From: an uncultured Steroidobacteraceae bacterium
Lineage (GTDB): Bacteria; Pseudomonadota; Gammaproteobacteria; Steroidobacterales; Steroidobacteraceae
Assembly (NCBI GenBank): GCA_964422045.1
Contig: CAYRAC010000001.1
Coordinates: 1 to 35,950 of the forward strand
Reading direction: 5' to 3'
DNA: 35,950 nt
Every line of letters starts with the position of its first letter. The stretch's first letter is position 1. Below are positions 1 through 21,615 of this stretch, piece by piece. A model generated the notes under the pieces. The model saw only the letters and a program-made list of their open reading frames with translations, did not search any database and was not told the DNA's origin. The position numbers were made by a program, and so were the translations under genes.

Positions 1-666
1 GCCGAGATCCGCGCCGTGATCCTCGGCGCTGCGGGACGCGGCTTTTGTTCGGGCGCCGACCTCATGGGCAGTAATTTCTCGGGTGGCGCCGAGGCGCGCC
101 TCGGCGAGGTCATCGGGATCGAGCTGCGCGAACACTTCAATCCCATGGTGAACGCCTGGTACCAGCTGCGCGTGCCGGTGGTCGTTGCCGTCAATGGGGT
201 CGCCGCGGGAGCCGGTGTCAGTCTCGCATTGCTCGGCGACATCGTTCTCGCGGCGCGCTCTGCCACATTTTTGCAATTGTTCGCGCCCAAATTGGGTCTC
301 ATGCCGGACCTCGGCAGCACGTTCCATCTGCCGCGGCTCGTCGGCACGGCCCGGGCGAAGGGGCTCGCGCTGCTGGGCGATGCGCTGTCGGCCGCGGATG
401 CCGCCGGTTGGGGACTCATCTGGGGGTGCGTCGAGGATACGGCGCTGCAGGCCGAAGCGCAGGCCATTGCGCGCCGTCTCGCCGCGGGTCCCACCCAGGC
501 GTTCCGGCGCATCAAGGCCACCTTCAACACGGAATTGCCGCGCACGCTGTCCGAGCAGCTGGCGCTCGAAGCCCAAGCCCAAGTTGAACTCGGCAACACG
601 CGGGATTTTGCCGAAGGCGTGCAGGCGTTCCGCAACAAGCGCGCGCCGAAATTCACGGGCAACTGA
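1..666 (+). CDS. paaG: Enoyl-CoA hydratase/isomerase, PaaG-like (5' end outside window)
   Basis: Frame 1 is open from base 1 (AEIRAVILGAAGRGFCSGADL...). Crotonase motifs GRGFCSGADL and VNGVAAGAGVSLALLGDIVLAARSA are present. The C-terminus FRNKRAPKFTGN and the overall pattern closely resemble E. coli PaaG as I recall it. Stop is at 664-666. Confidence 0.8.
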   Translation, partial: AEIRAVILGAAGRGFCSGADLMGSNFSGGAEARLGEVIGIELREHFNPMVNAWYQLRVPVVVAVNGVAAGAGVSLALLGDIVLAARSATFLQLFAPKLGLMPDLGSTFHLPRLVGTARAKGLALLGDALSAADAAGWGLIWGCVEDTALQAEAQAIARRLAAGPTQAFRRIKATFNTELPRTLSEQLALEAQAQVELGNTRDFAEGVQAFRNKRAPKFTGN

Positions 667-668
667 CA

Positions 669-1970: not shown

Positions 1971-2033
1971 AGCAACGCCGCAATCGACGCGCTATTCCAA
2001 TTCTCCGAGCGGCGCAGCGCGCTGCTGTTTTGG

Positions 2034-3578: not shown

Positions 3579-3593
3579 TCTGCCCGGGGCGGT

Positions 3594-5210
3594 TCATTGC
3601 GCCGCGCCACCCGCGGCGCTGCCGGTGACGGCGTCATCCACGCTCGAGTAGTCGAGTCCGGCCGGGGGCAGTTGACTGAAGTCGGCGCGCTGCAACGCAT
3701 CGCGGCTCGACTCTTTCAGTCTTGCGACACGCAGACCGATCTTGCGTACCGTGAGCCAGGCGGCGAATTCACCCAGGCTTTCCAGAGCCGTGCCGTCCAA
3801 GTCCGGCGATTCCTCGAGACTCAAGATCACGAGCTTGACGTCGGTTTGTTGCAGCACGCGTTGCCTGGCGACGGCGAGCAACGGCTCGGCGTTCGCAAAA
3901 AACAGCGGCTCCTCGGGCCGCAGGATGAGCATGCCCGGCGTGCAGGCCGCCTGCGGAAAACGCGTGACGCTGACGTAATCGTGCGCGCCGACGCGGCCCA
4001 AGATCGAAAGACGCGGGCTCGTCAACGAATGCAGCAGCATCCCCAGGCTGAACGCGATGGCGGCGAGCAGTCCGTCGAGCATGCCGAACAGGATGACCGC
4101 GGCCACGGCCGTGAGCGTGACCAGCCGATCGCGCTGCCAGCGAAAGTAAGGACGGAACGTCGCCAAGCGCAACGACTTGCTGACCGCATGGATGACGATC
4201 GCCGCCAGCACCGGGTCGGGAATGCGCTCGATCCACGGCAAGAACAGCAGCACGAGCGCGAGCACGGTCGCGGCGGCGAACACGCCCGCCGCGCGCGATT
4301 GCGCGCCGGCCGCGTCGTTGGCCGACGTGCCCGAATAGCCTGCCCCGACCGGCGTGCCGTGAAAAGCAGCCGACAGAATGTTGGCCGCGCCGAGCGCGAT
4401 CAGGTCGCGATTCGGCTGCACCACGTCGTCGTGCTTCAACGCATAGGTGCGGATCGAGCTATAGGATTCCGCGTACAGAATGAACATCAGCGCCAGTGCG
4501 AACTCCACCAGCGGCAACCAGTGCTGACCCGCAGGCATGGCAAATTCCGGCCGCTCCAGGACGAGATGGATGGGGCCGGTGAGTACCACGCCCCGCAACG
4601 CCAGCCACGGCGCCGCGGCAATGCCGGCGATGATGACCAGCAGGACGCCGGGAATATGTCGAAAGCGCTCGAGCAAGAACAAGCCCGCAAGGGCACCCAC
4701 CCCGACGCCGAGACTCACCGGCTGCCACTCGCGGACATGGCGCAGAATCTCCGAGAACAGCGGCAGAAAATCGCTGCTCTGCGTGTGGATGGCGACGATG
4801 TGCGGCCACTGCTTCACCGCGATGACGAGCGCGAGGCCAAAGGAAAAGCCGCGCAGCACGGGCCGCGCGATCAGGTTCGACATGGCGCCGAGCCGCGCGC
4901 AGCCGGCGAGCACGAAGGCGATGCCGGTCGCACACACGAGTATCGATGCGAACGCCATGCGCTGCCCCGAGGCATTGGCGGCGAGTGCCAGCGTCGCCGC
5001 GGCGAATACCGCGGCCGACGATGAGGTGGCGGTGACGATGGCATAGCGGCTGCTGCCGATCAGCGCATAGCAGAGCAGCCCGGCGAACAGGCCGATGACA
5101 CCCGCCTGCGGCGGCAGATTCGCGAGCCCAGAATAGGCCACCGCCTCGGGCAATAGCAAGCCGGCCAGGGACAGACCGGCGAGAGCGTCGGCCGAGTTAA
5201 CCGCGCGCAT
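3594..5210 (-). CDS. SulP-family inorganic anion transporter with C-terminal STAS domain
   Basis: The N-terminus LAGLSLAGLLLPEAVAYSGLANLPPQAGV is typical of SulP and the core is polytopic. The C-terminal soluble region (VKLVILSLEESPDLDGTALESLGEF) is STAS-like. The ATG at 5210 lies 3 nt after the upstream stop. Confidence 0.9.
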   Translation of the reverse strand: MRAVNSADALAGLSLAGLLLPEAVAYSGLANLPPQAGVIGLFAGLLCYALIGSSRYAIVTATSSSAAVFAAATLALAANASGQRMAFASILVCATGIAFVLAGCARLGAMSNLIARPVLRGFSFGLALVIAVKQWPHIVAIHTQSSDFLPLFSEILRHVREWQPVSLGVGVGALAGLFLLERFRHIPGVLLVIIAGIAAAPWLALRGVVLTGPIHLVLERPEFAMPAGQHWLPLVEFALALMFILYAESYSSIRTYALKHDDVVQPNRDLIALGAANILSAAFHGTPVGAGYSGTSANDAAGAQSRAAGVFAAATVLALVLLFLPWIERIPDPVLAAIVIHAVSKSLRLATFRPYFRWQRDRLVTLTAVAAVILFGMLDGLLAAIAFSLGMLLHSLTSPRLSILGRVGAHDYVSVTRFPQAACTPGMLILRPEEPLFFANAEPLLAVARQRVLQQTDVKLVILSLEESPDLDGTALESLGEFAAWLTVRKIGLRVARLKESSRDALQRADFSQLPPAGLDYSSVDDAVTGSAAGGAAQ

Positions 5211-5213
5211 CGC

Positions 5214-5831
5214 TCACTGTCCGGCAATCGACCCGCACCAGCCGGGCAGGAAGTCTGCCTCGCCGCTCTTGGCCAGTTTCAATGCGCGCACCAGTGCCGC
5301 CGGGAAATCATCCTCCAGGAACTTGCGCTTCAATCGACGTCTGAGAAAATCCGCCCACAGAAATTCGCTGAACGGCGTCGTGTCCTTCGCATAGCCGCCG
5401 CTTTGGCGCAACTCCCCGGCGAGACTGCGAAACGGATCATCGACCAAACCCATGATCCGCTTCGGCACGTCTTGATAGCTGCGGCGGCGGCCGCGAGCAT
5501 CGAAGGGATGCAGCCAGCCGCGGTTGTCCAAAAACACCCAGAAAGCATCGCGCGGCAGGCGGCGCAAATCCGCCACCACCGTGGTCGCGATATATTTCAC
5601 ACCCTCTTGATGCAGCGCCAGCGTCAAATGATGATGATCGATGACGTAGTACTCGTCCTTCGGGCCCCAGATGACGGGAATCAAGTGCTTGCCCAAGAAG
5701 TCCGCTTTCTTGCGTTGCTCGCGCCAAAACTTGCGCTTGGCCTTGACTTCGCGCATGCCGACCGTGATCTGCGTCGGCCGCAGCGATGCGATCGCGACCG
5801 GGTGAATCCGGGGTTCCCTGGGTAACGCCAT
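5214..5831 (-). CDS. ParB/Srx-fold protein (ParB-like nuclease domain, ParBc_2-type), 205 aa
   Basis: Motifs LRPTQITVGMREV and YYVIDHHHLTLAL resemble the ParB/sulfiredoxin-fold signature (PTQ...G, DGHHR-like). A strong SD (AGGAG) sits 6 nt upstream of the ATG at 5831. The family assignment is from memory of Pfam ParBc_2. Confidence 0.65.
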   Translation of the reverse strand: MALPREPRIHPVAIASLRPTQITVGMREVKAKRKFWREQRKKADFLGKHLIPVIWGPKDEYYVIDHHHLTLALHQEGVKYIATTVVADLRRLPRDAFWVFLDNRGWLHPFDARGRRRSYQDVPKRIMGLVDDPFRSLAGELRQSGGYAKDTTPFSEFLWADFLRRRLKRKFLEDDFPAALVRALKLAKSGEADFLPGWCGSIAGQ

Positions 5832-5891
5832 TGTTTGCTCCTACGCCTGATTCGCGCTCCGAAAAGATATCACGATGGCCGCCGCCCAGGG

Positions 5892-6311
5892 TCAACCGGC
5901 ATCCGGCAGCACGGCCGTTGCCTCGATCTCCACGCGCGCGTCTTTTTCCATCAGAGCAACGACCTGCACCACCGACATCGGCGGAAAGTGCTTGCCGAGC
6001 GTCGCGCGGTACGCCGCGCCGATATCGGCCAGTTGCTCGTGGTATTCGTCGCGGCTCGTCACGTACCAGGTGAGGCGCACGATATGTGCCGGCGTGGCCC
6101 CGGCCTCGGCCAAAATCGTCACGATATTGGCGAGCGCCTGCCGCACCTGGTCCGCCATGCGCAAGCTGTGAAATTTGCCGCCGCTGTCCCAGCCGATTTG
6201 TCCGGCCACGAAAATGCCGAGACCCCGAGCGGTCATGGCGTGGCTATAGCCCTTGGGCCGCGCCCAGCCGGCCGGTTGCACGATGGACGGTACGCGTTTG
6301 TCCCGGGTCAT
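5892..6311 (-). CDS. RidA/YjgF/L-PSP family enamine/imine deaminase
   Basis: The 139-aa product has FVAGQIGWD, QVRQALANIVTILAEAG and a VEIEATAV ending, typical of RidA-family proteins. Its ATG overlaps the ACAD stop (ATGA at 6308-6311). Confidence 0.85.
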   Translation of the reverse strand: MTRDKRVPSIVQPAGWARPKGYSHAMTARGLGIFVAGQIGWDSGGKFHSLRMADQVRQALANIVTILAEAGATPAHIVRLTWYVTSRDEYHEQLADIGAAYRATLGKHFPPMSVVQVVALMEKDARVEIEATAVLPDAG

Positions 6312-7504
6312 GCGCTGTCCGTTGGCGCGAGCAACTCGCGGGCGATGATCAGTTTCTGCACTTCGGTGGCGCCTTCGTAAATGCGCAGCGCCCGCACGTC
6401 GCGATACAGGCGCTCCAAGACTTCACCGCGTACCACGCCGCGCGCGCCGAACATTTGCAGCGCGCGGTCGACCACGCGCTGCGCCGTTTCGGTGGCGGTC
6501 ATTTTCGCCATGGCCGCTTCCTTCGTGACCCGCCCGCCGCAGTCGCGCAGCCACGCCGCTCGATAGGTCAATAGCCGTGCCGCGTCCACCTCGGTCGCCA
6601 TCTCCGCGAGCGCGGCCTGCGTCATTTGAAAATCCGCCAACTGGCGGCCGAACATGCGCCGTCCCCGGACCTGCCCGAGCGCCTCATCGAGCGCGCGCTG
6701 CGCGAAGCCGAGCGCGGCCGCGGCGACCGAGGTGCGGAATATATCGAGGGTGCGCATCGCGATCTTGAAGCCCTCGCCCTCCTCGCCGAGGCGCTGGCCG
6801 GCGGGAATGCGGCAGCCGCGAAATTCGAGCGTCGCCATCGGGTGCGGCGCAATGATGTCGATGCGCTCGCTCACCGACAAACCCGGCGTGTCGGCGTCGA
6901 TCACGAAGGCGCTGATGCCGGTTGCGGCCGCGCTCCCGTCCGCGCGCAAGCTGGCCGCCTGCGTGCGCGCAAAAACACAGTAGAAATCCGCGATGCCGCC
7001 GTTCGAAATCCACGTCTTCGCGCCATCGAGCACATACTCGTCCGCCTCGCGCCGAGCGCGGCATTGCATGCCCGCGACATCCGAGCCCGCGTCCGCCTCG
7101 GACAGGGCAAACGCGGCGCAAACCTCGCCGCGGGCAACGCGCGGCAAGTAGTGTCCTCGCTGGCGGGCGGTGCCTGCCAGGGTGAGCGCACCGCTGCCGA
7201 GACCCTGCATGGCAAACGCGAAATCCGCCAAGCCGTCGAATTGCGCCAATGCTTCGCGCACGATGGCGATGCTGCGCACGTCGAAGTCCTGCGATGCACC
7301 GCCATCCTCGCCGCGCACGCAGTGGCGAAGAATTCCCGCAGCCCCGAGCCTCTTCACCAGAGCGATGCAGTGCGCGTCGACCTGCTGCCGGTCATCGCCG
7401 TGGGTTGCCTGAAGATGGACGGCGCACCAGTCCTGCACCTGTTGGTGCAGCTCGCGATGCCGAGGCGCGAAGAACGGCCACTGCAAATGGGCTGCGCTGC
7501 TCAT
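6308..7504 (-). CDS. Acyl-CoA dehydrogenase
   Basis: ACAD pattern is present: TWISNGGIADFY, a C-terminal IYEGATEVQKLIIAREL, and FALSEADAGSD. I set the start at ATG 7504 (MSSAAHLQWPFF), 7 nt after the upstream stop. The tracked 7549 start would overlap the upstream CDS. Confidence 0.9.
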   Translation of the reverse strand: MSSAAHLQWPFFAPRHRELHQQVQDWCAVHLQATHGDDRQQVDAHCIALVKRLGAAGILRHCVRGEDGGASQDFDVRSIAIVREALAQFDGLADFAFAMQGLGSGALTLAGTARQRGHYLPRVARGEVCAAFALSEADAGSDVAGMQCRARREADEYVLDGAKTWISNGGIADFYCVFARTQAASLRADGSAAATGISAFVIDADTPGLSVSERIDIIAPHPMATLEFRGCRIPAGQRLGEEGEGFKIAMRTLDIFRTSVAAAALGFAQRALDEALGQVRGRRMFGRQLADFQMTQAALAEMATEVDAARLLTYRAAWLRDCGGRVTKEAAMAKMTATETAQRVVDRALQMFGARGVVRGEVLERLYRDVRALRIYEGATEVQKLIIARELLAPTDSA

Positions 7505-7511
7505 GGCTGCG

Positions 7512-8321
7512 TCAGTTCCCTTCGAACTGAGGTGTGCTCTTGGCCGCAAACGCTCGATAGGCGCGCCGAAAATCCTCGGTTTGCATGCACTGCGCCTGCG
7601 CCTGCGCTTCGGCTTCGATGGCCGCCGCGAGCGATAGATTCCATTCCTGGTTCAGCATGCGCTTGGTCATGGCATGGGCGATGGTCGGCCCGTTCGCGAG
7701 CACCGCGGCGAATTCGATGGCCTCGGCGGGAAGGCTCGATTGCTCGACCAGCCGGTTGAAAAAACCCCAGCTCGAGCCTTCCTGCGCGCTCATCGAGCGG
7801 CCGGTGTAGAGAAGTTCCGCGGCGCGGCCATGCCCGATGATGCGCGGCAGAATGGCGCACGCACCCATGTCGCATCCCGCGAGGCCGACGCGCACGAACA
7901 AGAATGCGGTGCGGCTGTCGGGCGTCGAAAATCGCAAGTCGGCGGCCATGGCGATGATGGCGCCGGCGCCGGCGCACACGCCGCTGACGGCCGCCACGAT
8001 CGGCTGCGGACACTCGCGCATGGCCATCACCAGATCGCCCGTCAGGCGCGTGAAGTCGAGCAGCCGCGGCGGATCCATGCGCGTCAACGGCCCGATGATC
8101 TCGTGCACGTCGCCGCCGGAGCAGAAATTGCCGCCCGCGCCCGTGATCACGATGGCTTTGACGGCGGGCTCGGCGCTAAGCCCGCGGAACAAGTCACGCA
8201 ACTCCGCATACGAGTCGAAGGTCAGCGGATTCTTGCGCTCCGGGCGATTCAACGTGATGACGCCGACGCGGCCGTGGATTTCCCAGAGAAAATTCTTGGG
8301 GTTGCAGTTCGCGAGACTCAT
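7512..8321 (-). CDS. Enoyl-CoA hydratase/isomerase (crotonase family)
   Basis: Begins [33 protein letters not shown], with GNFCSGGDV and [20 protein letters not shown]. The ATG at 8321 overlaps the MarR stop (ATGA at 8318-8321). The tracked 413-aa ORF is an N-terminal over-extension. Confidence 0.9.
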
Positions 8322-8851
8322 ACGGAGCCCTCCGCCCGGGAGTGTTCGTGACGCACGTGGTCCTTGAGATGGTTCAGCAGCCCCGCCAGTTGTTGCTTGG
8401 TCTTCGCAGGCAAACCGGCGAATAGCTCGATGATCCAGCGCTCGTGCGCCGCGGCCATCCTTTTGAAGAGACGTTGACCGCTCGGCGTCAGCGTCACGCG
8501 AAACGCCCGCCGATCGTGCGCATCGATCACGCGCGCGACCAGATCTTCCTTCTCCAGCAAATCGGTGATGCCGGTGACATTGCCGCCCGTGACCATCAAG
8601 CGCTTCGACAATTCGCCCATCTTGAGTCCTTCCGGGCAGCGTTCGAGCTGCGCCATCAGGTCGAAGCGCGGCAGCGTGGTGGCGAATTCGCCTTGCAGGC
8701 GCTGCCGGATATGGTTTTCGATCAGCGTCGAGCAGCTGAGCAGCCGCAGCCACAGCCGCAACGACTCATGATGGTCGTCGCGCACGCGGGTCTCGCTGTC
8801 GGATGCCGGTTCTTTGGGCGGCTTGACGCGACGCAAGGCGCTCGCCGTCAT
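8318..8851 (-). CDS. MarR-family transcriptional regulator (embedded in operon)
   Basis: Winged-helix pattern: [63 protein letters not shown]. The start at 8851 lies 1 nt from the SDR stop (8853). Confidence 0.85.
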
Positions 8852-8852
8852 G

Positions 8853-9626
8853 TCACATCACCTCGCCGCCGGCGACGGCGATGCTCTGCCCGGTCACGCT
8901 GCCGCTGCTCTCGAGGCACAGCCACAGCACCGTAGCGGCGACTTCGGCCGGCGTGACCAGCCGCCGTTGCGGGTTGTGCGCGACCAATTCGGCGAGCGCT
9001 GCCTCGGTGCCGCGGCCGGTTTTCGCGCTGATATTGGCCACCGCGGCGCGCACGATGTCGGTGTCGGTATAGCCCGGACACACGGCATTGACCGTCACGT
9101 TGCGGCGCGCCGTCTCGCGCGCCGCGGCGCGGGTCAAGCCGATCACGCCATGTTTCGACGCGCAGTAGGCGCTCACGTACGGATAGCCGACCAACCCGGC
9201 GGTGCTCGCAATATTCACGATGCGACCGAATCCGGCCTTGACCATGTCGGGCAGGCACTCGCGCATGCACAAAAAAGTGCCGGTGAGATTGACCGCCAAT
9301 ACGGAGTGCCAGAGCGCATCGCTCGTGCCGCCGAGCGGTGCGCTGTGCGCCTGGCCTGCATTGTTCACCAGGATCGCGATCGGTCCTAAGGCGTTGCGCG
9401 CTGCCGCGACGGCCGCGCGGACCGATTCGCCGTCCGCGACATCGGCCGCCTGGCAGCTGCTGCGCACGGCAGGCAGCTCCCCGGCGAGGCGTTCAAGATC
9501 GGGGCGCGAGCGGCCGAGCAAGCTGACATCGGCGCCGGCATCGGCCAGTGTGCGCGTGATCGCCGCGCCGATGCCGCGCCCTGCGCCCGTGATGAGCGCA
9601 TGCAATCCGGCGAGCGGTGCGCTCAT
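8853..9626 (-). CDS. Short-chain dehydrogenase/reductase (SDR)
   Basis: Contains ITGAGRGIGAAI (TGxxxGIG), NNAG and the YCASKHG (YxxxK) motif. I set the start at ATG 9626, which overlaps the upstream TGA by 1 nt. The tracked 410-aa ORF is over-extended. Confidence 0.9.
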   Translation of the reverse strand: MSAPLAGLHALITGAGRGIGAAITRTLADAGADVSLLGRSRPDLERLAGELPAVRSSCQAADVADGESVRAAVAAARNALGPIAILVNNAGQAHSAPLGGTSDALWHSVLAVNLTGTFLCMRECLPDMVKAGFGRIVNIASTAGLVGYPYVSAYCASKHGVIGLTRAAARETARRNVTVNAVCPGYTDTDIVRAAVANISAKTGRGTEAALAELVAHNPQRRLVTPAEVAATVLWLCLESSGSVTGQSIAVAGGEVM

Positions 9627-11911
9627 CAGACCGGACCCACGGCTTGTGCGGCCCGCTCGAGATTGCGTTCGAGTTGTGCCTTGCCGGATAGATACGGCGC
9701 AGGCCAGGCCTGCTCCTGGTAGTGCTGCTGCGCCGCCGCGCTCAATGTCCACGCGGGATTCGCCAGGTGCGGCCGCGCCAGCGCACACAGATCCGCGCGG
9801 CCCGCGGCGATGATGGAATTCACGTGATCCGCCTCGAATATATTGCCCACCGCGATGGTCGGAATCCCGATCCCGTTGCGTATCTGGTCCGAGAACGGGG
9901 TTTGCCACATGCGGCCGTAGACCGGTTTTTGGTCTGCGACCGTCTGGCCGCTCGACACGTCGAGCACATCGGCACCGGCCCGTTTGAGCGCCGCGGCAAT
10001 CGCCAACAGATCTGCTTCCGAGAGACCGCCGTCGGCCCAGTCGCAGGCGGATATTCGCGCCGACAGCGGACGCTCGGCCGGCCATACCGCGCGTACGGCC
10101 GCGAAAACCTCCAGCGGAAACTTGAGGCGCGCGCCGACATCGCCGCCGTATTCATCCTCGCGCAGATTGGTCAGGGGCGAGAGGAAACTGCCGAGCAGAT
10201 AGCCGTGCGCGAGATGCAGCTCCAACATGTCGAAATCCGCCTCGAGACCGAGCCGCGCCGAGCGCACGAACTCATCTCGAACCGCGACCATGTCCGACTC
10301 GGTCATGGCGGCGGGGATCTGGCTGATGCCGGCCATGTAGGGCAGCGCCGAGGGCGCGAGCAACGGCCAGTTACCGGTATCGAGGGGGTAATCCATGCGC
10401 TGCCAACCGAGCTGCGTCGACCCCTTGCGGCCCGAATGGCCGATCTGCAGGCAAATCTTGGCGCGCGAATGCGCATGAACGAAATCGACGATCCGCCGCC
10501 ACGCATCGCGCTGCGCCTCGTTCCACAATCCCGTACATCCCGGCGTGATCCGCCCCGACGGGGAAACGCAGGTCATCTCGGTGAACAAGAGCCCCGCACC
10601 GCCCACCGCGCGCGCGCCGTAGTGCATCAGGTGCCAGTCATCGGGCATGCCGTCTTTGGCCATGTATTGCGCCATGGGCGAGACCACCACACGATTCTCG
10701 AGCCGCATGCCGGCAAGCGTGATCGGCAAGAACATCGGCGGCCGCTCGCCCTCGGCGAGACCGCTGCGCGCCGCGAACCAGCGCTCATAGCGCTGCACGA
10801 ATCCTGCGTCGCGCAGCTTGAGGTTCGCATGCCCGATGCGCTGGCTGCCCGTGAGCAGCGCATAGGCGAACTGCTTGGGTTCGAGTTCGGCGTAGCGAGC
10901 GACATTCTCGAACCACTCCATTCGATTGCGTGCCGCGCTCTGCAGTTTGAGCGCCTCGAGACTGCGCTCCGCCTGGTAGGTGATCAGTCCCGCCGGCACG
11001 TCCGCCGCGCCCGCCACGCGGGCGACCAGCGACATGGCGTCTTCCATCGCGAGCTTGGTGCCGGAGCCGATACCAAAATGCGCGGTATGCGCCGCATCGC
11101 CGATCAACACGAGGTTCTTGTGGTGCCATTGCGCGCATAGCACGCGGTTGAAGCGCAGCCAGGCGGATCCGCGCAGGTGGTTCGCGTTGCTCATGAGCGG
11201 GCAGCCGCCCAAATACTTCGCGAACAACGACTCGCAAAAGGCGATCGACTGCGCGGCGCTGAACGTGTCGATGCCATGGGCGCGCCAGGTCTCCTCGCGC
11301 GTCTCGACGATGACGGTGGAGAGATCGTCGCTGAACTGATAGGCATGGATCTGGAACCACCCATGCGCGGTTTTTTCGAAGGCGAATGTGAAGGCGGCAA
11401 ATGTCTGCCGCGTACCGAGCCAGATGAAGCGGCATTGGCCGACGGCGATATTCGGCTGGAACACCGCGGCATAGCGCGTGCGGATTTTACTGTTCACGCC
11501 ATCGGACGCGACCGTGAGATCGGCATCGGCGAACGGCGCAAGATCATCGACCTCCGCTTGAAAATGCTGTTCGACGCCGAGCGCTCGAGCGCGCTCTTGA
11601 AAGATATTGAGCAGCCGGCGCCGGCCGATCCCGCAAAAGCCGTGACCGCCCGAACGAATCGTCTCGCCGCGGAAGTGCACGTCGATGTCGTCCCAGTGGT
11701 GGAAATCCTGCGTGATTGCATCGTGGGTCGGAGGGTCCGCCGCGCGGAAACCCGACATCGTCTGATCCGAGAAGACCACGCCCCAGCCGAAGGTATCGTC
11801 CGGCCGATTGCGTTCATGCACTTCGACCTTGACCGCCGGCAGCGCCTTCTTCAGCAGGATCGCGCCGTACAAGCCTGCGGGACCGCCACCGATGAACACG
11901 ACGCGCTTCAT
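9626..11911 (-). CDS. Bifunctional FAD-dependent aromatic-CoA monooxygenase / OYE-type NADH:flavin oxidoreductase (2-aminobenzoyl-CoA monooxygenase/reductase or salicylyl-CoA 5-hydroxylase family)
   Basis: The product is 761 aa. The N-terminal half has [17 protein letters not shown] (GxGxxG) and [24 protein letters not shown] (flavoprotein hydroxylase). The C-terminal half has [13 protein letters not shown]...[23 protein letters not shown]...[10 protein letters not shown] (old yellow enzyme family). Confidence 0.85.
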
Positions 11912-11917
11912 GGCCTC

Positions 11918-11946
11918 ACAATAGATGCGGATACTTTAGATGTCAA
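11918..11946 (-). promoter_or_regulatory. Candidate sigma70-type promoter TTGACA-N17-TATTGT directly upstream of the monooxygenase/reductase ATG
   Basis: The minus strand reads TTGACA (11946-11941), a 17-nt spacer, TATTGT (11923-11918), then GAGGCC and ATG (11911). This is the most AT-rich stretch between iorB and the next gene. Confidence 0.35.
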
Positions 11947-11956
11947 ATATATGCGG

Positions 11957-13429
11957 TCAACCGGCCGCGAGCGCCTTGGACAACGCCTCTCCCTCGTCAT
12001 CGGCGAGTGCCGCGGCGCACAGCGTACGCACCCTGGCGGCCGCCTCGCGACGCTGCGGACGGTCGTCGAGATCGGCAAGGATGGCGTTGAAACTCGCCGT
12101 GCCGCGCTCGTGGGTTTCGCCATAACCCTTCACCAGCCGTTGGCACTCGGCGATCTCCAGCGCCAGCGCGTAGTCCTGGCGCGCGGTTTGCCCGATGAAA
12201 TCGAGCCAGCGGCCGATGCGTCGCTCCTCGTCCGCGTAGCGCAAGGTGTTTCGGCGCCAACGCCTCAAACTGGCGAGCCAGTAAAGCTGCACGAAGCCCC
12301 CAATGCTCGTGGTCTCGATCCGCCGGCCGCGTGTCAGACGCGTCAGCCAGCGCCGCGGCCGCTTCGAGCGCAGGATCCAGCGGCCGAGGCGCGTCGGCAG
12401 CGTCCCACACAGCTCCTCGATCCGCGGCTTCATGAATTCGGTGACCGCAACCAGTTGGCGCTCTGACGGTCGAAGCTCCTCGAGCACGCGTCGCGTCCGG
12501 GCGCTGCGAATCTTCAAATCCGCAACGCGGATCGTATCCTCGAAGGACATCCACAGGGCGAGACCGCGCGCCACCGACTCGCTCAAAGGGCACTCGGCGC
12601 GTGACGGTTCCAATGCGATGACGGCCTCGAGCCGGTCGAGATACAGGCGCGCATAGGCGCAGTCTTGGTAGTCGAGCATCCGGCGCACTCCCTCGCGCGC
12701 CACAGCCTGGACCGACGCCGGCACGCGGCTGCGGATTCGCTCCTCCCAACCGCCCGACAGCGCGCGCGGCGGCGCAGCTTGCGGCGCAGCATCCGCCTGC
12801 GGGGCGCCGCCAGCCGCAGCGCGCGCCGCCTCGAACGCGCGGCTGCTCGATAGCGCTTCGATGCCGCTCGCACGGATCGCTGCGGTGTAGTGGTCGGGCG
12901 CGAAGGGTAGCGCACCGGAACCACACAGCGCGCCCAGCATCGCAGCGCTGATGACGCTGCCGCTGGCTTCTGCCACGGCCTGCATGTCGATTTCAACGTA
13001 GCGTCCCGCATGCTGGCGTGCGAGCTCGCGCACCCGGCTCGCATCGGCGCGGCCGTCGCCCCTGTGCGATTTCTCTTGTATCGAGAAAATCCGATGCGAC
13101 GACGCGATGAGCGTGGTGCGCTCGGTCACGAGCCCGCGCTGCATCGCCCGCCCGGCCTCCATGATTTCCGAAGCAATGACCACATCCACATCGCCGGGAT
13201 GCGGCATCAGCGCAAATATCGGCCGCTGGCCGGCGGGAATGCCCGCAATCGGAAAGAATTCCAAGTAGTAGATGGTGGCGCCGGTTCTTTGCGCGACCCC
13301 GGGAACGGACGTCGCCTGCGCCAGATAGCCCGATCGCCGGGCGACATCGATCAGCCAATCGGCGACGACCCCGCCGCCCTGCCCGCCCAATGCGGCGATG
13401 GTTAAGGTGATGGGCTTCGCTTCGCTCAC
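11957..13429 (-). CDS. iorB: Indolepyruvate/aryl-2-oxoacid:ferredoxin oxidoreductase, beta subunit (long form with C-terminal extension)
   Basis: Begins (GTG) SEAKPITLTIAALGGQGGGVVADWL...AQATSVPGVAQRTGATIYYLE, which is POR-gamma/IorB-like. The GTG at 13429 overlaps the iorA stop (GTGA). The roughly 300-aa C-terminal region resembles the domain seen in bacterial IOR-family proteins. Confidence 0.8.
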   Translation of the reverse strand: MSEAKPITLTIAALGGQGGGVVADWLIDVARRSGYLAQATSVPGVAQRTGATIYYLEFFPIAGIPAGQRPIFALMPHPGDVDVVIASEIMEAGRAMQRGLVTERTTLIASSHRIFSIQEKSHRGDGRADASRVRELARQHAGRYVEIDMQAVAEASGSVISAAMLGALCGSGALPFAPDHYTAAIRASGIEALSSSRAFEAARAAAGGAPQADAAPQAAPPRALSGGWEERIRSRVPASVQAVAREGVRRMLDYQDCAYARLYLDRLEAVIALEPSRAECPLSESVARGLALWMSFEDTIRVADLKIRSARTRRVLEELRPSERQLVAVTEFMKPRIEELCGTLPTRLGRWILRSKRPRRWLTRLTRGRRIETTSIGGFVQLYWLASLRRWRRNTLRYADEERRIGRWLDFIGQTARQDYALALEIAECQRLVKGYGETHERGTASFNAILADLDDRPQRREAAARVRTLCAAALADDEGEALSKALAAG

Positions 13430-15567
13430 ACCGATTCCTCGGCGATGCGCGCCAGGCGCCGGTCGAAACGACGCTGCAGGTAGCCGATCAGCGACGCTCG
13501 GATGCGGGCTTTCACCCGATCCCACACGCCGGGATTGGTAATGACGTCCGCCCGGTAGAAACTCGGACACAGGACCGCCGCGTGCGCGACTTCGCCGCAT
13601 ACGCCGCATCCGACGCAGCTATTGTCGACATGCGCGACCGGATCGCGCCGCAAGGGGTCCGGATTGGCCTTGATGGTGAGAGACGGGCAGCCGGAGAGGC
13701 GAATGCACGAGTGATCCCCGGTGCACACATCCGGATCGATGCCGAATCGTTGACGCACCACGCGCTTGCCCTCGGCGGCCATGCGCTTTAACTGTGGTGC
13801 CACCCGCCGCTTGCGGTTCAACTCGCACTCGCCCTGCGCGATGATCACCTTCGGCCCCTTGTACGCCGTGGTCAACGCTTCGCGCAGCGCCGCGATGCCC
13901 TCCTGCATTTTATAGGTATGGACCGTGCGCACCCAATCCACCCCGACGCCGCGCACCGCACGCTCGATCGGATTGCGGCCCTTGCGATGTTTGAGGTCCG
14001 CCCGCGACGACGGAATGTACTGGCCGCCGGTCGCTGCGGCATAGCCGTTGTCGACGATCACCGTGACCGAATCGTGCTGGTTGAATACCGAATTTCCGAT
14101 GCCGCTCGACAGGCCGTTGTGCCAGAAGCCGCCATCGCCCATGATTGATATCGAGCGCCGGCCGTGCCCGCCGCTCAAGGCGGCGCCGCTGGCAGCGCCC
14201 AGTCCATAGCCCATGATGCTCGCCCCGGTATTGAACGGCGGCAACGTCGCGAACGAGTGACAGCCGATGTCGGCGCTGACGTGCACGCTGCCCAATTCCC
14301 GCTGCACGAGTTTCATCGATGAGAAGAACGGCCGCTCGGGACAACCGGTGCACAGGCCCGGCGGACGCGCCGGCACCGCCTTGCGCAACTCGGCGATCGG
14401 CAGCAGCGGCCGTTCGCTGGCCGGGTCCGAAGGCAAGGCGCGCGGCGCCCACTCCGTGAGGAAGGTCTTGATCCCGGCGCTGACGACCGCGCCCGTATAT
14501 TCGCCGGCCATGGGCAGCGGCCCCTTGCCGACGATGCGCGTCTCGATATCCGCGTTGCGCAAGAATTGATTGACGCTTTGCTCGATATATTCCGGCTGGC
14601 CTTCCTCGATGATCAACAGCGCGCGCTTGGCCCTGGCAAACTGCCGGAACTCCTCCGCAACCAACGGATAGGTGACATTGAGCACATACAGGGGAATGCG
14701 CGACTTGCCGAAGACGTCGGCGAGACCCAGCAGCTGCAAAGACCTGAGTACCGTGTTGAAAAGCCCGCCCTGCATCACGATGCCGACATCGATATCGCCG
14801 GCCTGCATTTCGTTCAAGCGGTTGTCGATGATGAAGCGCACCGCCGCGGGCCAGCGCGCGTCGACCTTGTCCTGTTCCTGGGCATAGGTCGCCGGCGGCA
14901 GGATGATGCGCTCCGCCGAGCGCTGCGGATGTTCGAGTGCCTCGCGAATCGCGAACCGCGGCGCGAGGTTGTCCTTGGCGACGAACGAGCCGTACATGTG
15001 GCACGCGCGAATCCGCAGCATCAGCATCACCGGCGTTCGACTGGCCTCGGATAGTTCGAAACCGCGCTCGACCATATCGACGATGGCGCGCGTGTCGGGC
15101 TTCGGATCGAGCAGCCAAATCTGCGACTTCATCGCAAACGCGTGCGAGCGCTCCTGCATGATGCTCGCGCCCTCGCCATAGTCCTCGCCGACGATCATGA
15201 GTGCGCCGCCCCGCACGCCGGCCGACGCCAGGTTGGAAAGCGCATCGGATGCGACGTTGGTGCCGACCGTCGATTTCCACGTTACCGCGCCGCGCAGCGG
15301 GTAATTGATCGACGCGGCCAACATCGCCGCCGCGCCGGCCTCGGACGCGCTCGATTCGAAATGCACGCCGAGTTCGTCCAGGATCTCGCGCGCATCGGCG
15401 AGCACGTCCATCAAATGCGAGACCGGCGCTCCCTGATAGCCGCCGACATAGGCAACGCCCGCCTGCAGCAACGCTTTGGTCACGGCAAGAATGGCCTCGC
15501 CTTCGAACAGCTCGCCGGCACCGAGCCTGAGCGATTGAACTTCACGTGCGAACGATCGCTCTGCCAT
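13426..15567 (-). CDS. iorA: Indolepyruvate/aryl-2-oxoacid:ferredoxin oxidoreductase, alpha subunit (TPP + Fe-S)
   Basis: The product is 713 aa. It has the TPP-binding pattern GDGGFWHNGLSSGIGNSVFN and the C-terminal Cys clusters CTGDHSCIRLSGCPS and CVGCGVCGEVAHAAVLCPS. The N-terminus VAYVGGYQGAPVSH is typical of IorA. Confidence 0.9.
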   Translation of the reverse strand: MAERSFAREVQSLRLGAGELFEGEAILAVTKALLQAGVAYVGGYQGAPVSHLMDVLADAREILDELGVHFESSASEAGAAAMLAASINYPLRGAVTWKSTVGTNVASDALSNLASAGVRGGALMIVGEDYGEGASIMQERSHAFAMKSQIWLLDPKPDTRAIVDMVERGFELSEASRTPVMLMLRIRACHMYGSFVAKDNLAPRFAIREALEHPQRSAERIILPPATYAQEQDKVDARWPAAVRFIIDNRLNEMQAGDIDVGIVMQGGLFNTVLRSLQLLGLADVFGKSRIPLYVLNVTYPLVAEEFRQFARAKRALLIIEEGQPEYIEQSVNQFLRNADIETRIVGKGPLPMAGEYTGAVVSAGIKTFLTEWAPRALPSDPASERPLLPIAELRKAVPARPPGLCTGCPERPFFSSMKLVQRELGSVHVSADIGCHSFATLPPFNTGASIMGYGLGAASGAALSGGHGRRSISIMGDGGFWHNGLSSGIGNSVFNQHDSVTVIVDNGYAAATGGQYIPSSRADLKHRKGRNPIERAVRGVGVDWVRTVHTYKMQEGIAALREALTTAYKGPKVIIAQGECELNRKRRVAPQLKRMAAEGKRVVRQRFGIDPDVCTGDHSCIRLSGCPSLTIKANPDPLRRDPVAHVDNSCVGCGVCGEVAHAAVLCPSFYRADVITNPGVWDRVKARIRASLIGYLQRRFDRRLARIAEESV

Positions 15568-15600
15568 GACCGCGCCTTGAGTGGCTTCGAGTGACCTGCA

Positions 15601-15628
15601 ATACTATTCTCGTTACGTGATTTTGCAA
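15601..15628 (-). promoter_or_regulatory. Candidate iorA promoter (TTGCAA-N16-TAGTAT on minus strand) within the iorA/marR divergent region
   Basis: The minus strand reads TTGCAA (15628-15623), a 16-nt spacer and TAGTAT (15606-15601). An AAGG SD lies 7 nt before the ATG at 15567. A TGCAA(T)(A)CTATT repeat occurs at 15598-15609 and 15625-15634. Confidence 0.25.
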
Positions 15629-15645
15629 CTATTGAGGAGCAACCG

Positions 15646-16137
15646 GTGCCCCGAGCAACAGCCGACGCCAAGCGCCGCGGCGATCCGCAATCCGCCCAAT
15701 TTCGCCTCAGCGACTCGCCGCTGTACCTGATCGTGCGCACCGCCGGCCGTTATGCGCAGGAACTCGAGAACGCCTTGCACGCCTCCGGCATGGACCTCTT
15801 GAGCTGGCGCGCGCTGATGATCGTCACCGAGGCAAGCCCGAGCAGCGTCAGCGAAATCGCCGAGCGCTCGGTGACCCGGCTCTCGACGATGACCCGGGTG
15901 GTGCAGCGCCTGCAAAGAAAGAAGCTGGTAAAACTTGCCAAGCGGCGTTCCGATGCCCGCGTGACGGAGGTTCATCTGACTGCCCTCGGCAAGCGCTGCG
16001 TTGAGAACGAACGCGCCACGGCCGGTGAAATCTACCGCCGCGCCACGCGCGATTTGACGCCCTCGGATATCACCACGCTGAAACGGTTGACGCGGCGACT
16101 TTTCGCGAACTTGTCACCGCAGGCGGCCCGGGGATAA
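15646..16137 (+). CDS. MarR-family transcriptional regulator (divergent from iorAB)
   Basis: Contains LSWRALMIVTEASPSSVSEIAERSVTRLSTMTRVVQRLQRKKLVKLAKRRSDARVTEVHLTALG. The GTG start is preceded by a GAGGAG SD. Confidence 0.85.
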   Translation: MPRATADAKRRGDPQSAQFRLSDSPLYLIVRTAGRYAQELENALHASGMDLLSWRALMIVTEASPSSVSEIAERSVTRLSTMTRVVQRLQRKKLVKLAKRRSDARVTEVHLTALGKRCVENERATAGEIYRRATRDLTPSDITTLKRLTRRLFANLSPQAARG

Positions 16138-17235
16138 CGCGGCCGCATCGACGCCGCACGCGGCGAGCCGCGGCAGCGTTGCCGCGCCGGTTATTTGCGC
16201 GACCGCGAGTTCGGCGAGCGCCGGCGCCGTCTGTATGCCGTAGCCGCCTTGACCCGCCAACCAGTAGAAACCGCGCGCCTGCGGGTCGAATCCGGCGACC
16301 GGCGTGCGATCTTTGGCAAAGGTTCGAAGTCCCGCCCACGCACTCAAGGGCCGATCGACGCTGAGGCGGGTGGCCGCTTCGACCCGGGCAATGGTGAGCG
16401 CCACGTCGTAGTCGTCCGGTTGCGCATCGCAGGGCGGGCTCGGCGTCTCGTCGGCGGGCGACAGCAGCAAGGCACCGGCATCGGCACGCAAGTACCACTG
16501 TTCGGATACATCGACGATGAAGGGCCAATCCGCCGCCACCCAGGGCGCGCAACTCACGCGCACCGCGGTGCGCCGGCGCGGCTCGAGGCCGACTGCGGCC
16601 ACACCCGCGGCGCGCGCCACCTCATCCGCCCATGCGCCGGCGGCGTTGACGACGACCGGCGCAAGAATCTCATGGGCCCCGGCGCGGATGAGCCACGCAT
16701 CGTCCACGAGTTCGAGCCGGGTCACTTCGGCCTCGCGATACGGCCGGCCGCCGCGCGCGCGGAACTGGCGCGCGTAGTGGTCGACGACGGCGGCCACATC
16801 GATGTCTCGAGCATCCGCATCGAGCAGCGCCGCCGCGAGCAGCTCGGGCTTGAGCATCGGGCACAGCCGCAGCGCTGCTTGCGGCCCCAAAATTTCAACG
16901 TGGGAAGTGGCGGCAGAGAGCGTTGCGTGCAGCGCCTTGAGCTCGTCTTGCTGGGTGGCGGCCGCGACGAACAGCGCGCCGCGCGGTCGCGTAAATTGCG
17001 CAGCTTGGTCGCCGCCCAAATAGAAATCGCGGCTGGCGCGCGTCAGCGCACGGACCGCCGTGTTGCCATAAGACTCTGCGAACAGCGCGGCCGAGCGGCC
17101 CGTCGAGTGATAAGCCCAATGCGGCTCGCGTTCCACCAGCACGACGCTGCGCGCGGCGGCGAGGCCCGCCGCGACGGACAGACCCGCCAAACCGCCGCCG
17201 ATGACGCAGATGTCGAATCGTTCAGCCGTACTCAT
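16114..17235 (-). CDS. FAD-dependent oxidoreductase (DAO / glycine-D-amino-acid oxidase-like)
   Basis: FDICVIGGGLAGLSVAAGL (GxGxxG) lies at the N-terminus and the C-terminus has GQGGYGIQTAPAL. I set the start at ATG 17235 (MSTAERF). The 3' end overlaps the convergent MarR by 24 nt. Confidence 0.8.
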   Translation of the reverse strand: MSTAERFDICVIGGGLAGLSVAAGLAAARSVVLVEREPHWAYHSTGRSAALFAESYGNTAVRALTRASRDFYLGGDQAAQFTRPRGALFVAAATQQDELKALHATLSAATSHVEILGPQAALRLCPMLKPELLAAALLDADARDIDVAAVVDHYARQFRARGGRPYREAEVTRLELVDDAWLIRAGAHEILAPVVVNAAGAWADEVARAAGVAAVGLEPRRRTAVRVSCAPWVAADWPFIVDVSEQWYLRADAGALLLSPADETPSPPCDAQPDDYDVALTIARVEAATRLSVDRPLSAWAGLRTFAKDRTPVAGFDPQARGFYWLAGQGGYGIQTAPALAELAVAQITGAATLPRLAACGVDAAALSPGRLR

Positions 17236-17323
17236 CCCCTGTGCGGCGCTCCGTTGAGGTCGCGCGCCCATCTTATGCTAGGCTAAATTCCTCGTGTCGA
17301 CCTGATTTGAGCACAAAAGAACC

Positions 17324-18475
17324 ATGCCTCGCCGCTCCGTCGCGATCCCGAGCATCAAGATTGCCGCCGCCGCAGCGATTGCGGTGTCGAGCGCCTCCTG
17401 CGCACAGCGCGCGCCTCCGGCGGCGGCGATTGTCGATGTCACCACCGTCACGGTCACGCCGCACCCGGTGACATTTTCCGAGGACTACGTTGCGCAGACC
17501 GAAGCCGTGAACGCGGTCGAGATCCGGCCGCGGGTCGGCGGCATGCTGGAGAAGCGGGTGCCGGTCGAGGGCGAGCCCGTCAAAACAGGTCAGCTGCTGT
17601 TCGTGATCGATCGCGAACCCTATATTGCCGCTTTGGCCCAGGCCCAGGCGACCCTGGCGCAGAGCCAAGCCGCCTCGCTGCAATCGCAGCGCGACTTAGG
17701 CCGCGCCAAGTCGCTCTCCGAGATCGATGCCGTGAGCCAGCAGGAACTCGACGCGGCGGTGGCGAAGAACCAAGCCAACCTGGCGTCGATCGACGCCGCC
17801 AAGGCTGCCGTCAGGACTGCGGAGCTCAACTTGGGCTATACCACCATCTTGAGCCCGATCGACGGGGTCATGGGGCGCGCGCAATTGCGCCAGGGCGGCA
17901 TGGTCACCGCCAATAACACGCTGCTGACGACGATCTACCAAATCGACCGCATGTACGTCAATTTCAGCGTCAGCGAGCGGCGCCTGCTCAGCCTGCAGCG
18001 CCAGCTCGGCGGCACTATGGATCAGAAATCGCGGACGACACCGCCGTTTCGCATTTTTTTGGCGGATGGTTCCGAGTATCCGCAGAAACCGCGGCTCGAC
18101 TTCATCGATCCGGCGGTCGATTCGCGCACCGGCACCCTCGCCCTGCGTCTGGAGGTCGACAACCCGCATCAGCTGTTGCACGCGGGTGAATTCGCGCGCG
18201 TACAGCTCGCGGCACAGCAGGATCCGAACGGGATCCTGGTGCCGCAGCGCGCCGTGCAGGACCTACAAGGCAAGAACTACGTCTGGATCGTCGACGCCGC
18301 CGGCCGCGCGCAACAGCGCGATGTGCAATTGGGCCCGCGCATCGGCCCCGACTGGCAGGTGCAGCAGGGATTGAAGGCCGGAGATGTCGTGATCGTCGAT
18401 GGGTTGCAGCACTTGAAGCCGGCCGCGCCGGTGAAGGCCACTGCATTGGCGGTTCCGGCTCCGAGCGAGGCATGA
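17324..18475 (+). CDS. RND efflux periplasmic adaptor (membrane fusion protein) lipoprotein
   Basis: It has a lipobox-like VSSASC signal, followed by [36 protein letters not shown] and [15 protein letters not shown]. The stop overlaps the pump ATG (ATGA at 18472-18475). Confidence 0.9.
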
Positions 18476-21400: not shown

Positions 21401-21615
21401 CCTCCTTCGCTTTCATCTTCGGTTCCTTGCCGCTCGCGATTGCCACAGGGGCCGGCGCCTCGGCGCGCCGCGTGCTCGGTACGGCCGTGGTATTCGGCAT
21501 GAGCGTCGCCACCCTCGTCGGCATTTTCCTGATTCCGGTCTTCTATGTGCTCATGCAGCGGCTCGCCGAACGGCTGGGACGCCTGTGGAAACCGGCAGCG
21601 GCAGCGCCGCCATGA
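18472..21615 (+). CDS. RND multidrug efflux permease (HAE1, AcrB/MexB-like)
   Basis: The product is 1047 aa and begins [43 protein letters not shown]. It has the typical two large periplasmic loops and 12 TM helices, with [12 protein letters not shown] and [14 protein letters not shown]. Confidence 0.95.

Follow-up and report, generated by a model that had tools for sequence, protein, structure and literature searches.

A candidate ligase-free entry into the aerobic 2-aminobenzoyl-CoA pathway: an operon of an uncultured Steroidobacteraceae bacterium headed by an IOR-family oxidoreductase

Introduction

How does an aerobic pathway that acts on aromatic thioesters of coenzyme A (CoA) obtain its substrate when its operon encodes no CoA ligase? 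This question is raised by a stretch of 35 950 nucleotides from an uncultured Steroidobacteraceae bacterium (assembly GCA_964422045.1, contig CAYRAC010000001.1, from position 1), the whole of which is called the window hereafter (G+C approx. 65%). On its minus strand, between positions 5892 and 15567, the genes of a two-subunit oxidoreductase of the indolepyruvate oxidoreductase (IOR) family, iorA and iorB, stand directly upstream of a gene encoding a fused FAD-monooxygenase and old yellow enzyme (OYE), itself followed by genes of the type known from the 2-aminobenzoyl-CoA pathway. Comparison with related loci leads us to propose that this is a MarR-controlled, aerobic 2-aminobenzoyl-CoA (‘abm’-type) operon, in which IorAB would make 2-aminobenzoyl-CoA, most probably from isatinate, without the help of a ligase. 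Because the evidence is all comparative, our confidence in this reading is moderate, with a probability of approximately 55%.

The chemistry has a precedent in the phenylglyoxylate:acceptor oxidoreductase of Azoarcus evansii, which converts an arylglyoxylate into benzoyl-CoA; indolepyruvate would give an arylacetyl-CoA. Fusion enzymes of the kind found here also act in the sdg pathway of Streptomyces sp. WA46, which comprises a ligase, the salicylyl-CoA 5-hydroxylase SdgC, a thioesterase and a gentisate dioxygenase. An earlier analysis of the window, made from its letters alone (the sequence-only reading), had suggested that IorAB forms the aroyl-CoA directly from an arylglyoxylate, and had named phenylglyoxylate and isatinate (2-aminophenylglyoxylate) as candidates. 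On the substrate side, the conversion of indole and indole-3-acetate (IAA) through isatin and isatinic acid into anthranilate has long been known, and Cupriavidus SHE continues from there through a 2-aminobenzoyl-CoA cluster (PMC6221969). No enzyme was named for the isatinate-to-anthranilate step in the literature that we found, nor was any link made there between IOR-type genes and isatinate.

Gene content and architecture

The eight open reading frames (ORFs) between 5892 and 15567 are all intact on the minus strand and lie where the sequence-only reading had placed them. The first, iorA (13426-15567), encodes a protein of 713 aa with the Pfam domain TPP_enzyme_C and overlaps iorB through the tetranucleotide GTGA (13426-13429). 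The iorB gene (11957-13429) has a GTG start and encodes 490 aa with a POR domain (POR gamma-like) and DUF6537. An AT-rich spacer of 45 nt (11912-11956), inside which lies the ribosome-binding site (RBS, GAGG) of the following gene, separates iorB from the gene of the 761-aa fusion between the FAD-monooxygenase and the FMN-dependent OYE part (9626-11911; FAD_binding_3 and Oxidored_FMN). The abm-type core then continues with a short-chain dehydrogenase/reductase (SDR) that resembles 3-hydroxyacyl-CoA dehydrogenases (8853-9626; adh_short domain) and shares one nucleotide with the fusion gene (TGATG, at 9626); with an internal MarR regulator (8318-8851; Pfam MarR) after a gap of one nucleotide (TGAcATG); with a crotonase-family protein, an enoyl-CoA hydratase or ring hydrolase (7512-8321), that overlaps the regulator gene through ATGA (8318-8321); with an acyl-CoA dehydrogenase (ACAD; 6308-7504) carrying all three ACAD domains, 7 nt further on; and with a RidA-family enamine/imine deaminase (5892-6311; Ribonuc_L-PSP domain), the last core gene, joined to the ACAD gene by a second ATGA overlap (6308-6311).

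Read base by base, each of the tight junctions described earlier was recovered, as was the 45-nt gap, and the genes of the iorA-to-RidA unit are translationally coupled. The earlier list of eight genes is therefore correct in what it contains but leaves the unit incomplete, as a ninth member was missing from it: a divergent MarR regulator on the plus strand (15646-16137; Pfam MarR/MarR_2), similar to IacR and IadR. Between this gene and iorA lies an intergenic region of 78 nt (15568-15645), which, given the divergent layout, presumably holds the promoter and operator.

By its profile matches, the fusion protein is a member of the family that includes 2-aminobenzoyl-CoA monooxygenase/reductase (ACMR) and salicylyl-CoA 5-hydroxylase. 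It matches NF006101 (‘bifunctional salicylyl-CoA 5-hydroxylase/oxidoreductase’) over the full model length with 1233.4 bits (cut-off 1078), FAD_binding_3 covering residues 130-320 and Oxidored_FMN residues 393-728, and its PDB matches are VioD-like for the N-terminal half and OYE-like for the C-terminal half. More than 8000 homologues were found, the nearest being Steroidobacteraceae proteins named ‘anthraniloyl-CoA monooxygenase’ by JGI; the orthologue of Aromatoleum buckelii (L064) is 59% identical. The crotonase likewise exceeds the cut-off of its model, NF006107 (462 versus 330 bits).

On the side of the fusion enzyme, the comparison set consisted of 80 genomic loci holding a fusion gene, around which a feeder (ligase or IorAB) was sought within 10 kb. 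The core order fusion-SDR-MarR-crotonase-ACAD-RidA is conserved in approximately 70 of these 80 loci. In most of them an SDR (50-64% identical) follows the fusion gene, the internal MarR gene stands between the SDR and crotonase genes, and RidA closes the cluster; the crotonase (62-74% identical) is present in nearly all, and the ACAD is 53-69% identical across the set. The window holds all the genes that accompany abm-type pathways (crotonase, dehydrogenases, MarR, RidA/L-PSP protein).

Origin of the aroyl-CoA

Pfam scans of the other sizeable ORFs of the window found no AMP-binding domain, CoA-transferase, thioesterase or Rieske domain. A hidden Markov model (HMM) of the ligases, trained on 40-odd sequences from related loci and run on the window ORFs of at least 100 aa, matched none of them. 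Contig DASWZT010000197.1, from a Steroidobacteraceae metagenome-assembled genome (MAG; GCA_036407175.1), matches the left part of the window (1-8783) at 99.75% identity and extends 7.5 kb beyond the left edge; the ligase HMM had no match in this contig either, and the additional 7.5 kb carry housekeeping genes (NMO, holA, nadD, rsfS, rlmH, maf, rng, yhdP). The nearest possible ligase would thus lie more than 13 kb past RidA and more than 20 kb past iorA. The sequence-only reading had reported that the window encodes no acyl-CoA ligase, and both searches bear this out; a ligase just outside, which would have spoken against its proposal, was found neither in these 7.5 kb nor within 10 kb in nine of the ten IorAB-type relatives.

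Around the 80 fusion genes, a ligase alone was found in 41 cases, IorAB alone in nine, both in one and neither in 29, so that ligase and IorAB are anticorrelated (Fisher p=0.005; p=0.003 when only fully flanked fusion loci are counted). The best NCBIfam match of the ligase of these loci is the benzoate-CoA ligase family TIGR02262, at 355 bits, below the cut-off of 375. Its gene lies between ACAD and RidA in many Betaproteobacteria, and directly upstream of the fusion gene, in the very slot of IorAB, in the Steroidobacteraceae-type sister loci L002, L007, L013, L015 and L025. In a tree of the fusion enzymes, limited to orthologues at least 62% identical to that of the window, IorAB-type and ligase-type loci are interleaved. 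Close relatives thus appear to have swapped the feeder module while keeping the enzyme, which suggests that both feeders deliver the same aroyl-CoA. The adjacency of iorAB and the fusion gene, whose conservation had been proposed as a check, recurs in Gammaproteobacteria, Betaproteobacteria, Alphaproteobacteria, Gemmatimonadales and Actinomycetota.

The nature of this substrate is suggested by a gene that the window lacks. When the ORFs of the IorAB loci were clustered, a gene of approximately 260 aa belonging to the cyclase family (PF04199) was found in nine of the ten other IorAB fusion loci, in most of them directly upstream of iorA; a tenth locus, L009, has it at a contig end. Its product matches the isatin hydrolases of Ralstonia solanacearum (IHA, 5NMP; E=1e-101) and Labrenzia aggregata (IHA, 1e-96; IHB, 1e-82), for which structures are available (4J0N, 5NNA, 5NMP; PMC6117287), and the Mn-binding motif is kept (GEHTGTHFDAP, intact). 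The alternative of a kynurenine formamidase was rejected, as the match to KynB reaches only approximately 1e-5. By these similarities the gene is unambiguously the orthologue of isatin hydrolase. Ten of the 80 fusion loci hold the hydrolase gene; IorAB accompanies it in every one whose flank is available, and a ligase in none (co-occurrence of IorA and hydrolase, p=4e-10). A scan of metagenomes with the IorA alignment yielded 80 further loci, 19 of which have at least 8 kb on both sides; isatin hydrolase is present in 15 of these 19, and hydrolase or abm genes in 18. Since the product of isatin hydrolase is isatinate, this linkage leads to one of the two arylglyoxylates named beforehand.

Relatives of IorAB and their genomic contexts

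The label ‘iorAB’ given by the sequence-only reading holds at the level of the family only. IorB matches NF006179 (‘indolepyruvate oxidoreductase subunit beta family’) with 631 bits, above the cut-off of 348, but reaches only 33.6 bits against TIGR03334 (IOR_beta; cut-off 205.8), and IorA remains below the cut-off of the IOR_alpha equivalog (290.7 versus 650.9 bits; TIGR03336/TIGR03334 pair). With an IorA below this cut-off and an IorB of 490 aa containing DUF6537, the pair belongs to the IOR family but is not an IOR sensu stricto. A PDB sequence search with IorA gave no match at E<=0.001. In an alignment of eight orthologues, the thiamine pyrophosphate (TPP) motif GDGGFWHNG and the motifs CTGCPERP and DIGCH of IorA are invariant, and so are its two C-terminal Cys clusters, CTGDHSCIRLSGCPS and CVGCGxCG...LCPS. 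Orthologues of IorA are 59-72% identical across phyla, and iorB follows iorA without exception in the related loci.

A phylogenetic placement of the fusion enzyme and of IorA had also been called for; the fusion tree gave the interleaving described above, and in the IorA tree the window sequence and its closest relatives in L087-L089 (85-87% identical) are nested inside the clade linked to isatin hydrolase. A separate IorAB clade lacks both the hydrolase and the abm genes. At 19 of 21 clade-diagnostic residues, the window IorA agrees with the hydrolase-linked clade, and at none with the other. Four of the diagnostic residues cluster in the loop after the TPP motif, and positions 506, 511 and 515, in the ATGGQ loop, also split the two clades. 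Residue 517, in the ATGGQ-x-IPSS loop beside the TPP motif, is Tyr in the window and its three closest relatives, Asp in at least 90% of the hydrolase-linked sequences and Asn in the other clade.

Several other contexts of IorAB were encountered. The Caballeronia plasmid pSBC1_4 (L082, 12001-24387) carries the order iorA-iorB-thioesterase-fusion-cupin-FAH together with a MarR and a cyclase gene, and a Tsukamurella plasmid (L086, 1-16074) holds parts of the Caballeronia type in addition to a ligase and FMO-like flavoproteins. Both plasmids combine IorAB and the cyclase with a fusion enzyme, thioesterase, cupin dioxygenase, FAH and C-N hydrolase, a gene content that suggests that the same CoA ester enters a 5-hydroxyanthranilate- or gentisate-like branch there, rather than one of the beta-oxidation type. 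In Azospirillum, an iad-like locus (MarR divergent to iorA and iorB, reductase, Rieske alpha and beta subunits, ligase, SDR) runs into a fusion gene, and in Sulfitobacter a cyclase, two flavoproteins and a MarR gene accompany iorA and iorB.

In the separate clade, the operon of a Variovorax boronicumulans plasmid (NZ_CP138497.1; L081, 11998-22574) includes an ABC importer, an alpha-hydroxy-acid oxidase and an enolase-superfamily protein. It looks like a mandelate-type route that leads to an arylglyoxylate and onward to an aroyl-CoA, and hints at arylglyoxylates other than isatinate. Two IorAB loci without hydrolase, L131 (5878-9058) and L116 (13050-16535), have genes for the TRAP transporter proteins DctP, DctQ and DctM between IorAB and the abm genes. 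The presence of such carboxylate importers suggests that the 2-oxoacid can be taken up as such.

Regulation and flanking genes

The best matches of the divergent MarR among solved structures are IacR of Pseudomonas putida (7KUA, E=1e-26), 7L19 (E=9e-21) and MarR_73/IadR of Variovorax (7KFO, E=7e-10), all regulators of auxin catabolism (Conway 2022). Counterparts stand divergently upstream of iorA in the close relatives L088 and L089, with 80-82% identity, and more distant ones in L105, L115, L163 and L164. The window copy occupies the place of IadR/IacR in auxin-catabolism loci and probably represses the iorA operon; the binding site of IadR in Variovorax lies between iadR and iadA (PMC9613470). 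Together with the internal MarR, this IacR/IadR-like regulator presumably exerts a control at two levels.

Promoter prediction added little. The scan called no consensus promoter in the divergent region (15568-15645), and its match counts for promoters and terminators were no higher than in shuffled sequences. A sigma-70-like pair, TTGACA-17-TATTGT, lies in the gap between iorB and the fusion gene, its -10 element abutting the fusion RBS; two such hexamer pairs were observed in 12.5 kb, both at 11918-11960, against 1.8 expected in shuffles. The pair may represent an internal promoter or a MarR operator, or else, the spacer being AT-rich, a match that arose by chance.

Downstream of RidA, a ParBc_2 ‘ParB-like nuclease’ gene (5214-5831, minus strand) starts after 60 nt in the direction of the operon and is followed 3 nt later by a SulP/STAS permease gene in the same direction (3594-5210, minus strand); the same order after RidA recurs in the MAG contig L167. 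At 2.3 kb from the cluster, an MFS transporter (2034-3578, plus strand) has the aromatic acid/H+ symporter family as its best NCBIfam model, with 126 bits for a cut-off of 418, and is possibly an importer of aromatic acid. Further left lie a histidine kinase gene (669-1970) and, cut by the window edge, a PaaG-like enoyl-CoA isomerase/hydratase gene (16-666, plus strand). In the MAG contig the latter stands alone beside an NMO-family gene and housekeeping genes, and does not belong to a second CoA pathway cluster.

On the other side, a DAO-family FAD oxidoreductase gene (16114-17271, minus strand) overlaps the divergent MarR gene by 24 nt, 3' end to 3' end. It was rejected as a source of the 2-oxoacid and as a member of the unit, being conserved in none of the related loci and without any NCBIfam match. 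The locus is adjoined by an RND efflux system of membrane-fusion protein, pump and outer-membrane factor (17324-23033, plus strand), and homologues of the first two stand beside the cluster in L004, on its opposite side. An FMN-dependent alpha-hydroxy-acid dehydrogenase (31775-32917, minus strand) was likewise rejected as a mandelate dehydrogenase supplying the arylglyoxylate: it falls in the L-lactate dehydrogenase subfamily (425 bits, cut-off 376), lies at a distance of 16 kb and shows no conserved association with the cluster. A homologue lies inside the IorAB operon of the V. boronicumulans plasmid, but the window gene is probably unrelated to the cluster.

Comparison with known pathways

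For A. evansii, the gene content used in this comparison was taken from reviews and general knowledge. Its 2-aminobenzoyl-CoA pathway (PMC4539516) resembles the window in the fused FAD-monooxygenase::OYE family, in the accompanying crotonase, dehydrogenases, MarR and RidA-like protein, and in the expected non-aromatic product. It differs by its 2-aminobenzoate-CoA ligase, whose slot is taken in the window by the IOR-family oxidoreductase, so that the entry substrate would be a 2-oxoacid instead of anthranilate and activation would proceed without ATP. The sdg pathway of Streptomyces sp. WA46 shares the fusion family, which NCBIfam names after SdgC, whereas the window has a reductive continuation of the beta-oxidation type and neither thioesterase nor cupin dioxygenase; an sdg-like continuation combined with IorAB and the cyclase is found on the Caballeronia and Tsukamurella plasmids, not in the window.

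As for the oxidoreductase itself, the same TPP and iron-sulphur (Fe-S) chemistry, from arylglyoxylate to aroyl-CoA, is proposed here as for PadEFGHI of A. evansii; that enzyme, compared by description only, has five subunits where two are found here, and belongs to an anaerobic phenylalanine/phenylacetate pathway. Canonical archaeal and clostridial IorAB are members of the same superfamily, with an alpha subunit laid out in the same way (Pyr and PP domains, ferredoxin-like Cys clusters), but their beta subunit is approximately 200 aa long, against 490 aa with DUF6537 here, and the context here is aerobic aromatic catabolism.

The closest parallel for IorAB is the auxin-degrading iad locus of Variovorax, Bradyrhizobium and Achromobacter (iadR-iadA-iadB-iadCDE...iadI; PMC9613470, PMC12633357), since iadA and iadB form one orthologue group with the window genes. 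The IorA proteins of the iad-like loci L083, L142, L163 and L166 are 62-66% identical to that of the window, a MarR gene stands divergently upstream of iadA as of iorA, and IadI, like the isatin hydrolase found in the window's relatives, is an amidase of the cyclase family. Both iadA and iadB are described as ‘exclusive markers’ of iad operons, with no function assigned (Conway et al., PMC9613470). The window differs in lacking the Rieske oxygenase IadDE, IadF/G/H/J and the cyclase, and in that its IorAB part is joined directly to the 2-aminobenzoyl-CoA pathway; tblastn queries for the Rieske subunits and IadF, taken from L083, flagged nothing in the window, in agreement with the Pfam scans. 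The ‘iad’ cluster of Pseudomonas sp. LY1 (PMC8383072) was set aside, as its iadA/iadB are unrelated and its nomenclature is iac-like.

Discussion

The following pathway would account for this gene content. Isatinate, the ring-opened product of isatin from indole and IAA catabolism, would be the most probable arylglyoxylate to be bound by IorAB, which would decarboxylate it on TPP with CoA; two electrons would leave through the Fe-S clusters to an acceptor, and 2-aminobenzoyl-CoA would be released. The fusion enzyme would then hydroxylate and reduce the ring of this ester, as in ACMR chemistry, and RidA, crotonase, SDR and ACAD would deaminate, open and beta-oxidise the enamine product, the role of RidA being deduced from the known product of ACMR (PMC4539516, PMC3534580). 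The suggestion that IorAB forms the aroyl-CoA from an arylglyoxylate, with isatinate as a candidate, thus gains support from the co-conservation of iorAB with the fusion gene, from the near mutual exclusivity of the feeders and from the link to isatin hydrolase. For the IorAB/IadAB clade as a whole, we consider the chances about even that it represents an oxygen-tolerant TPP/Fe-S isatinate:acceptor oxidoreductase, converting 2-aminophenylglyoxylate into 2-aminobenzoyl-CoA.

Several observations weigh against this reading. The cluster encodes no gene for the electron acceptor. Isatin hydrolase is missing from the window, where the best tblastn match has E=0.05 only, and from the closest relatives, L087-L089; isatinate would consequently need to be imported or synthesized elsewhere. 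The Tyr517 of IorA, near the TPP motif, indicates that the specificity of this lineage may have shifted. Ligase and IorAB occur together in L079, L126, L129, L131, L132, L154 and L165, so that IorAB is better regarded as a second entry into the pathway than as a strict replacement of the ligase. Conversely, no feeder of either kind accompanies approximately nine of the 47 fusion genes whose flanks are complete (L001, L024, L029, L030, L038, L042, L054, L063 and L064, each with full 10-kb flanks), which implies that feeders can be encoded elsewhere, perhaps also a ligase in this genome. It is thus possible that the specificity for arylglyoxylates has shifted here, or that ligase and hydrolase are both encoded at other places in the genome.

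A further caveat comes from auxin degradation. Anthranilate is produced again by V. paradoxus CL014 when iadC-K2 is supplied without iadA/iadB (PMC12633357, 2025 preprint), and IadAB is therefore not required for the conversion of isatinate into anthranilate in this strain. In the same work, a compound with the formula of isatinate, C8H7NO3, which was shown to be different from N-formylanthranilate, accumulates strongly only in the iadC-K2 strains that lack iadAB, and a compound of formula C7H7NO, that of 2-aminobenzaldehyde, likewise accumulates strongly only in the overexpression strains without iadAB. The build-up of C8H7NO3 would be expected if IadAB normally consumes isatinate, overexpression being the alternative cause. 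We count these data both as a caveat and as weak support for the role of IorAB in isatinate conversion.

Other explanations must be weighed against the same evidence. IorAB could feed the fusion enzyme but act here on another arylglyoxylate, such as phenylglyoxylate, 2-hydroxyphenylglyoxylate or an imported ortho-substituted one. This would fit a lineage without isatin hydrolase and with Asp517 replaced by Tyr in an active-site-proximal loop of IorA; the mandelate-like context in the sister clade (V. boronicumulans) indicates that the family is not restricted to isatinate, the TRAP carboxylate transporters of hydrolase-less loci point in the same direction, and NCBIfam names the fusion family after salicylyl-CoA. 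We nevertheless consider it unlikely, as the window IorA groups inside the hydrolase-linked clade, with 19 of the 21 diagnostic residues of this clade and none of the other, as RidA and the whole abm-type core, which fit an amino-substituted ring, are kept, and as the fusion enzyme is 69-75% identical to those of the hydrolase-linked, Steroidobacteraceae-type loci and their neighbour on the fusion tree. Alternatively, IorAB might be a true arylpyruvate or indolepyruvate oxidoreductase, producing arylacetyl-CoA and merely co-regulated through tryptophan or auxin metabolism, while a distant ligase feeds the fusion enzyme. Both subunits are indeed of the IOR family, with a match to NF006179 above its cut-off; some loci have a ligase as well as IorAB, the loci without a nearby feeder show that distant feeders exist, and iadAB is dispensable for anthranilate formation in Variovorax. 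However, IorA misses the IOR_alpha cut-off by a wide margin (291 versus 651 bits), IorAB and the ligase are anticorrelated and share one slot, and the recurrent minimal module of hydrolase, IorAB and fusion enzyme includes no enzyme that would convert arylacetyl-CoA into a substrate of the latter. Moreover, hydroxylases of the fusion type are not known to accept an arylacetyl-CoA, the product expected from indolepyruvate. All in all, this second explanation appears quite unlikely.

The adjacency could finally be meaningless, iorAB being either the decaying remnant of an isatin module or recruited for another task, e.g. the supply of reduced ferredoxin. The hydrolase is indeed missing here and present in most relatives, and conservation does not extend past the divergent MarR, even in L089. 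Yet iorA and iorB are intact, with invariant cofactor motifs; the layout MarR-iorA-iorB-fusion is kept in relatives with 85-87% identical IorA (L088); the unit is translationally coupled, with only a 45-nt gap containing an RBS between iorB and the fusion gene; and the monooxygenase/reductase of the ACMR type uses NAD(P)H, not ferredoxin. This last explanation appears very improbable.

Conclusion

All elements of the locus are of known kinds (an oxidoreductase of the OFOR superfamily, an abm pathway and genes that serve as iad markers), and no new category is called for. If the proposed conversion of isatinate by IorAB is correct, isatin hydrolase, IorAB and ACMR would together form a complete and so far unrecognized route into central metabolism for isatin, whether its source is indole, IAA or tryptophan. 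Many soil and marine bacteria would possess this route, which would avoid free anthranilate as an intermediate and spend no ATP on ligation; the anthranilate in which iad strains are said to end would then represent a by-product. A function would also be assigned to iadA and iadB, the markers of auxin-degrading operons, and the iad and indole pathways would connect straight to that of 2-aminobenzoyl-CoA. An arylglyoxylate-specific member would be added to the ‘aerobic’ IOR family with DUF6537, which is poorly understood, and an Fe-S 2-oxoacid oxidoreductase would operate directly upstream of an O2-dependent, dearomatising flavoenzyme. As signalling molecules, indole, isatin and IAA abound around plant roots as well as in guts and in the sea, and the proposed enzyme would be the one that removes the isatinate they yield.

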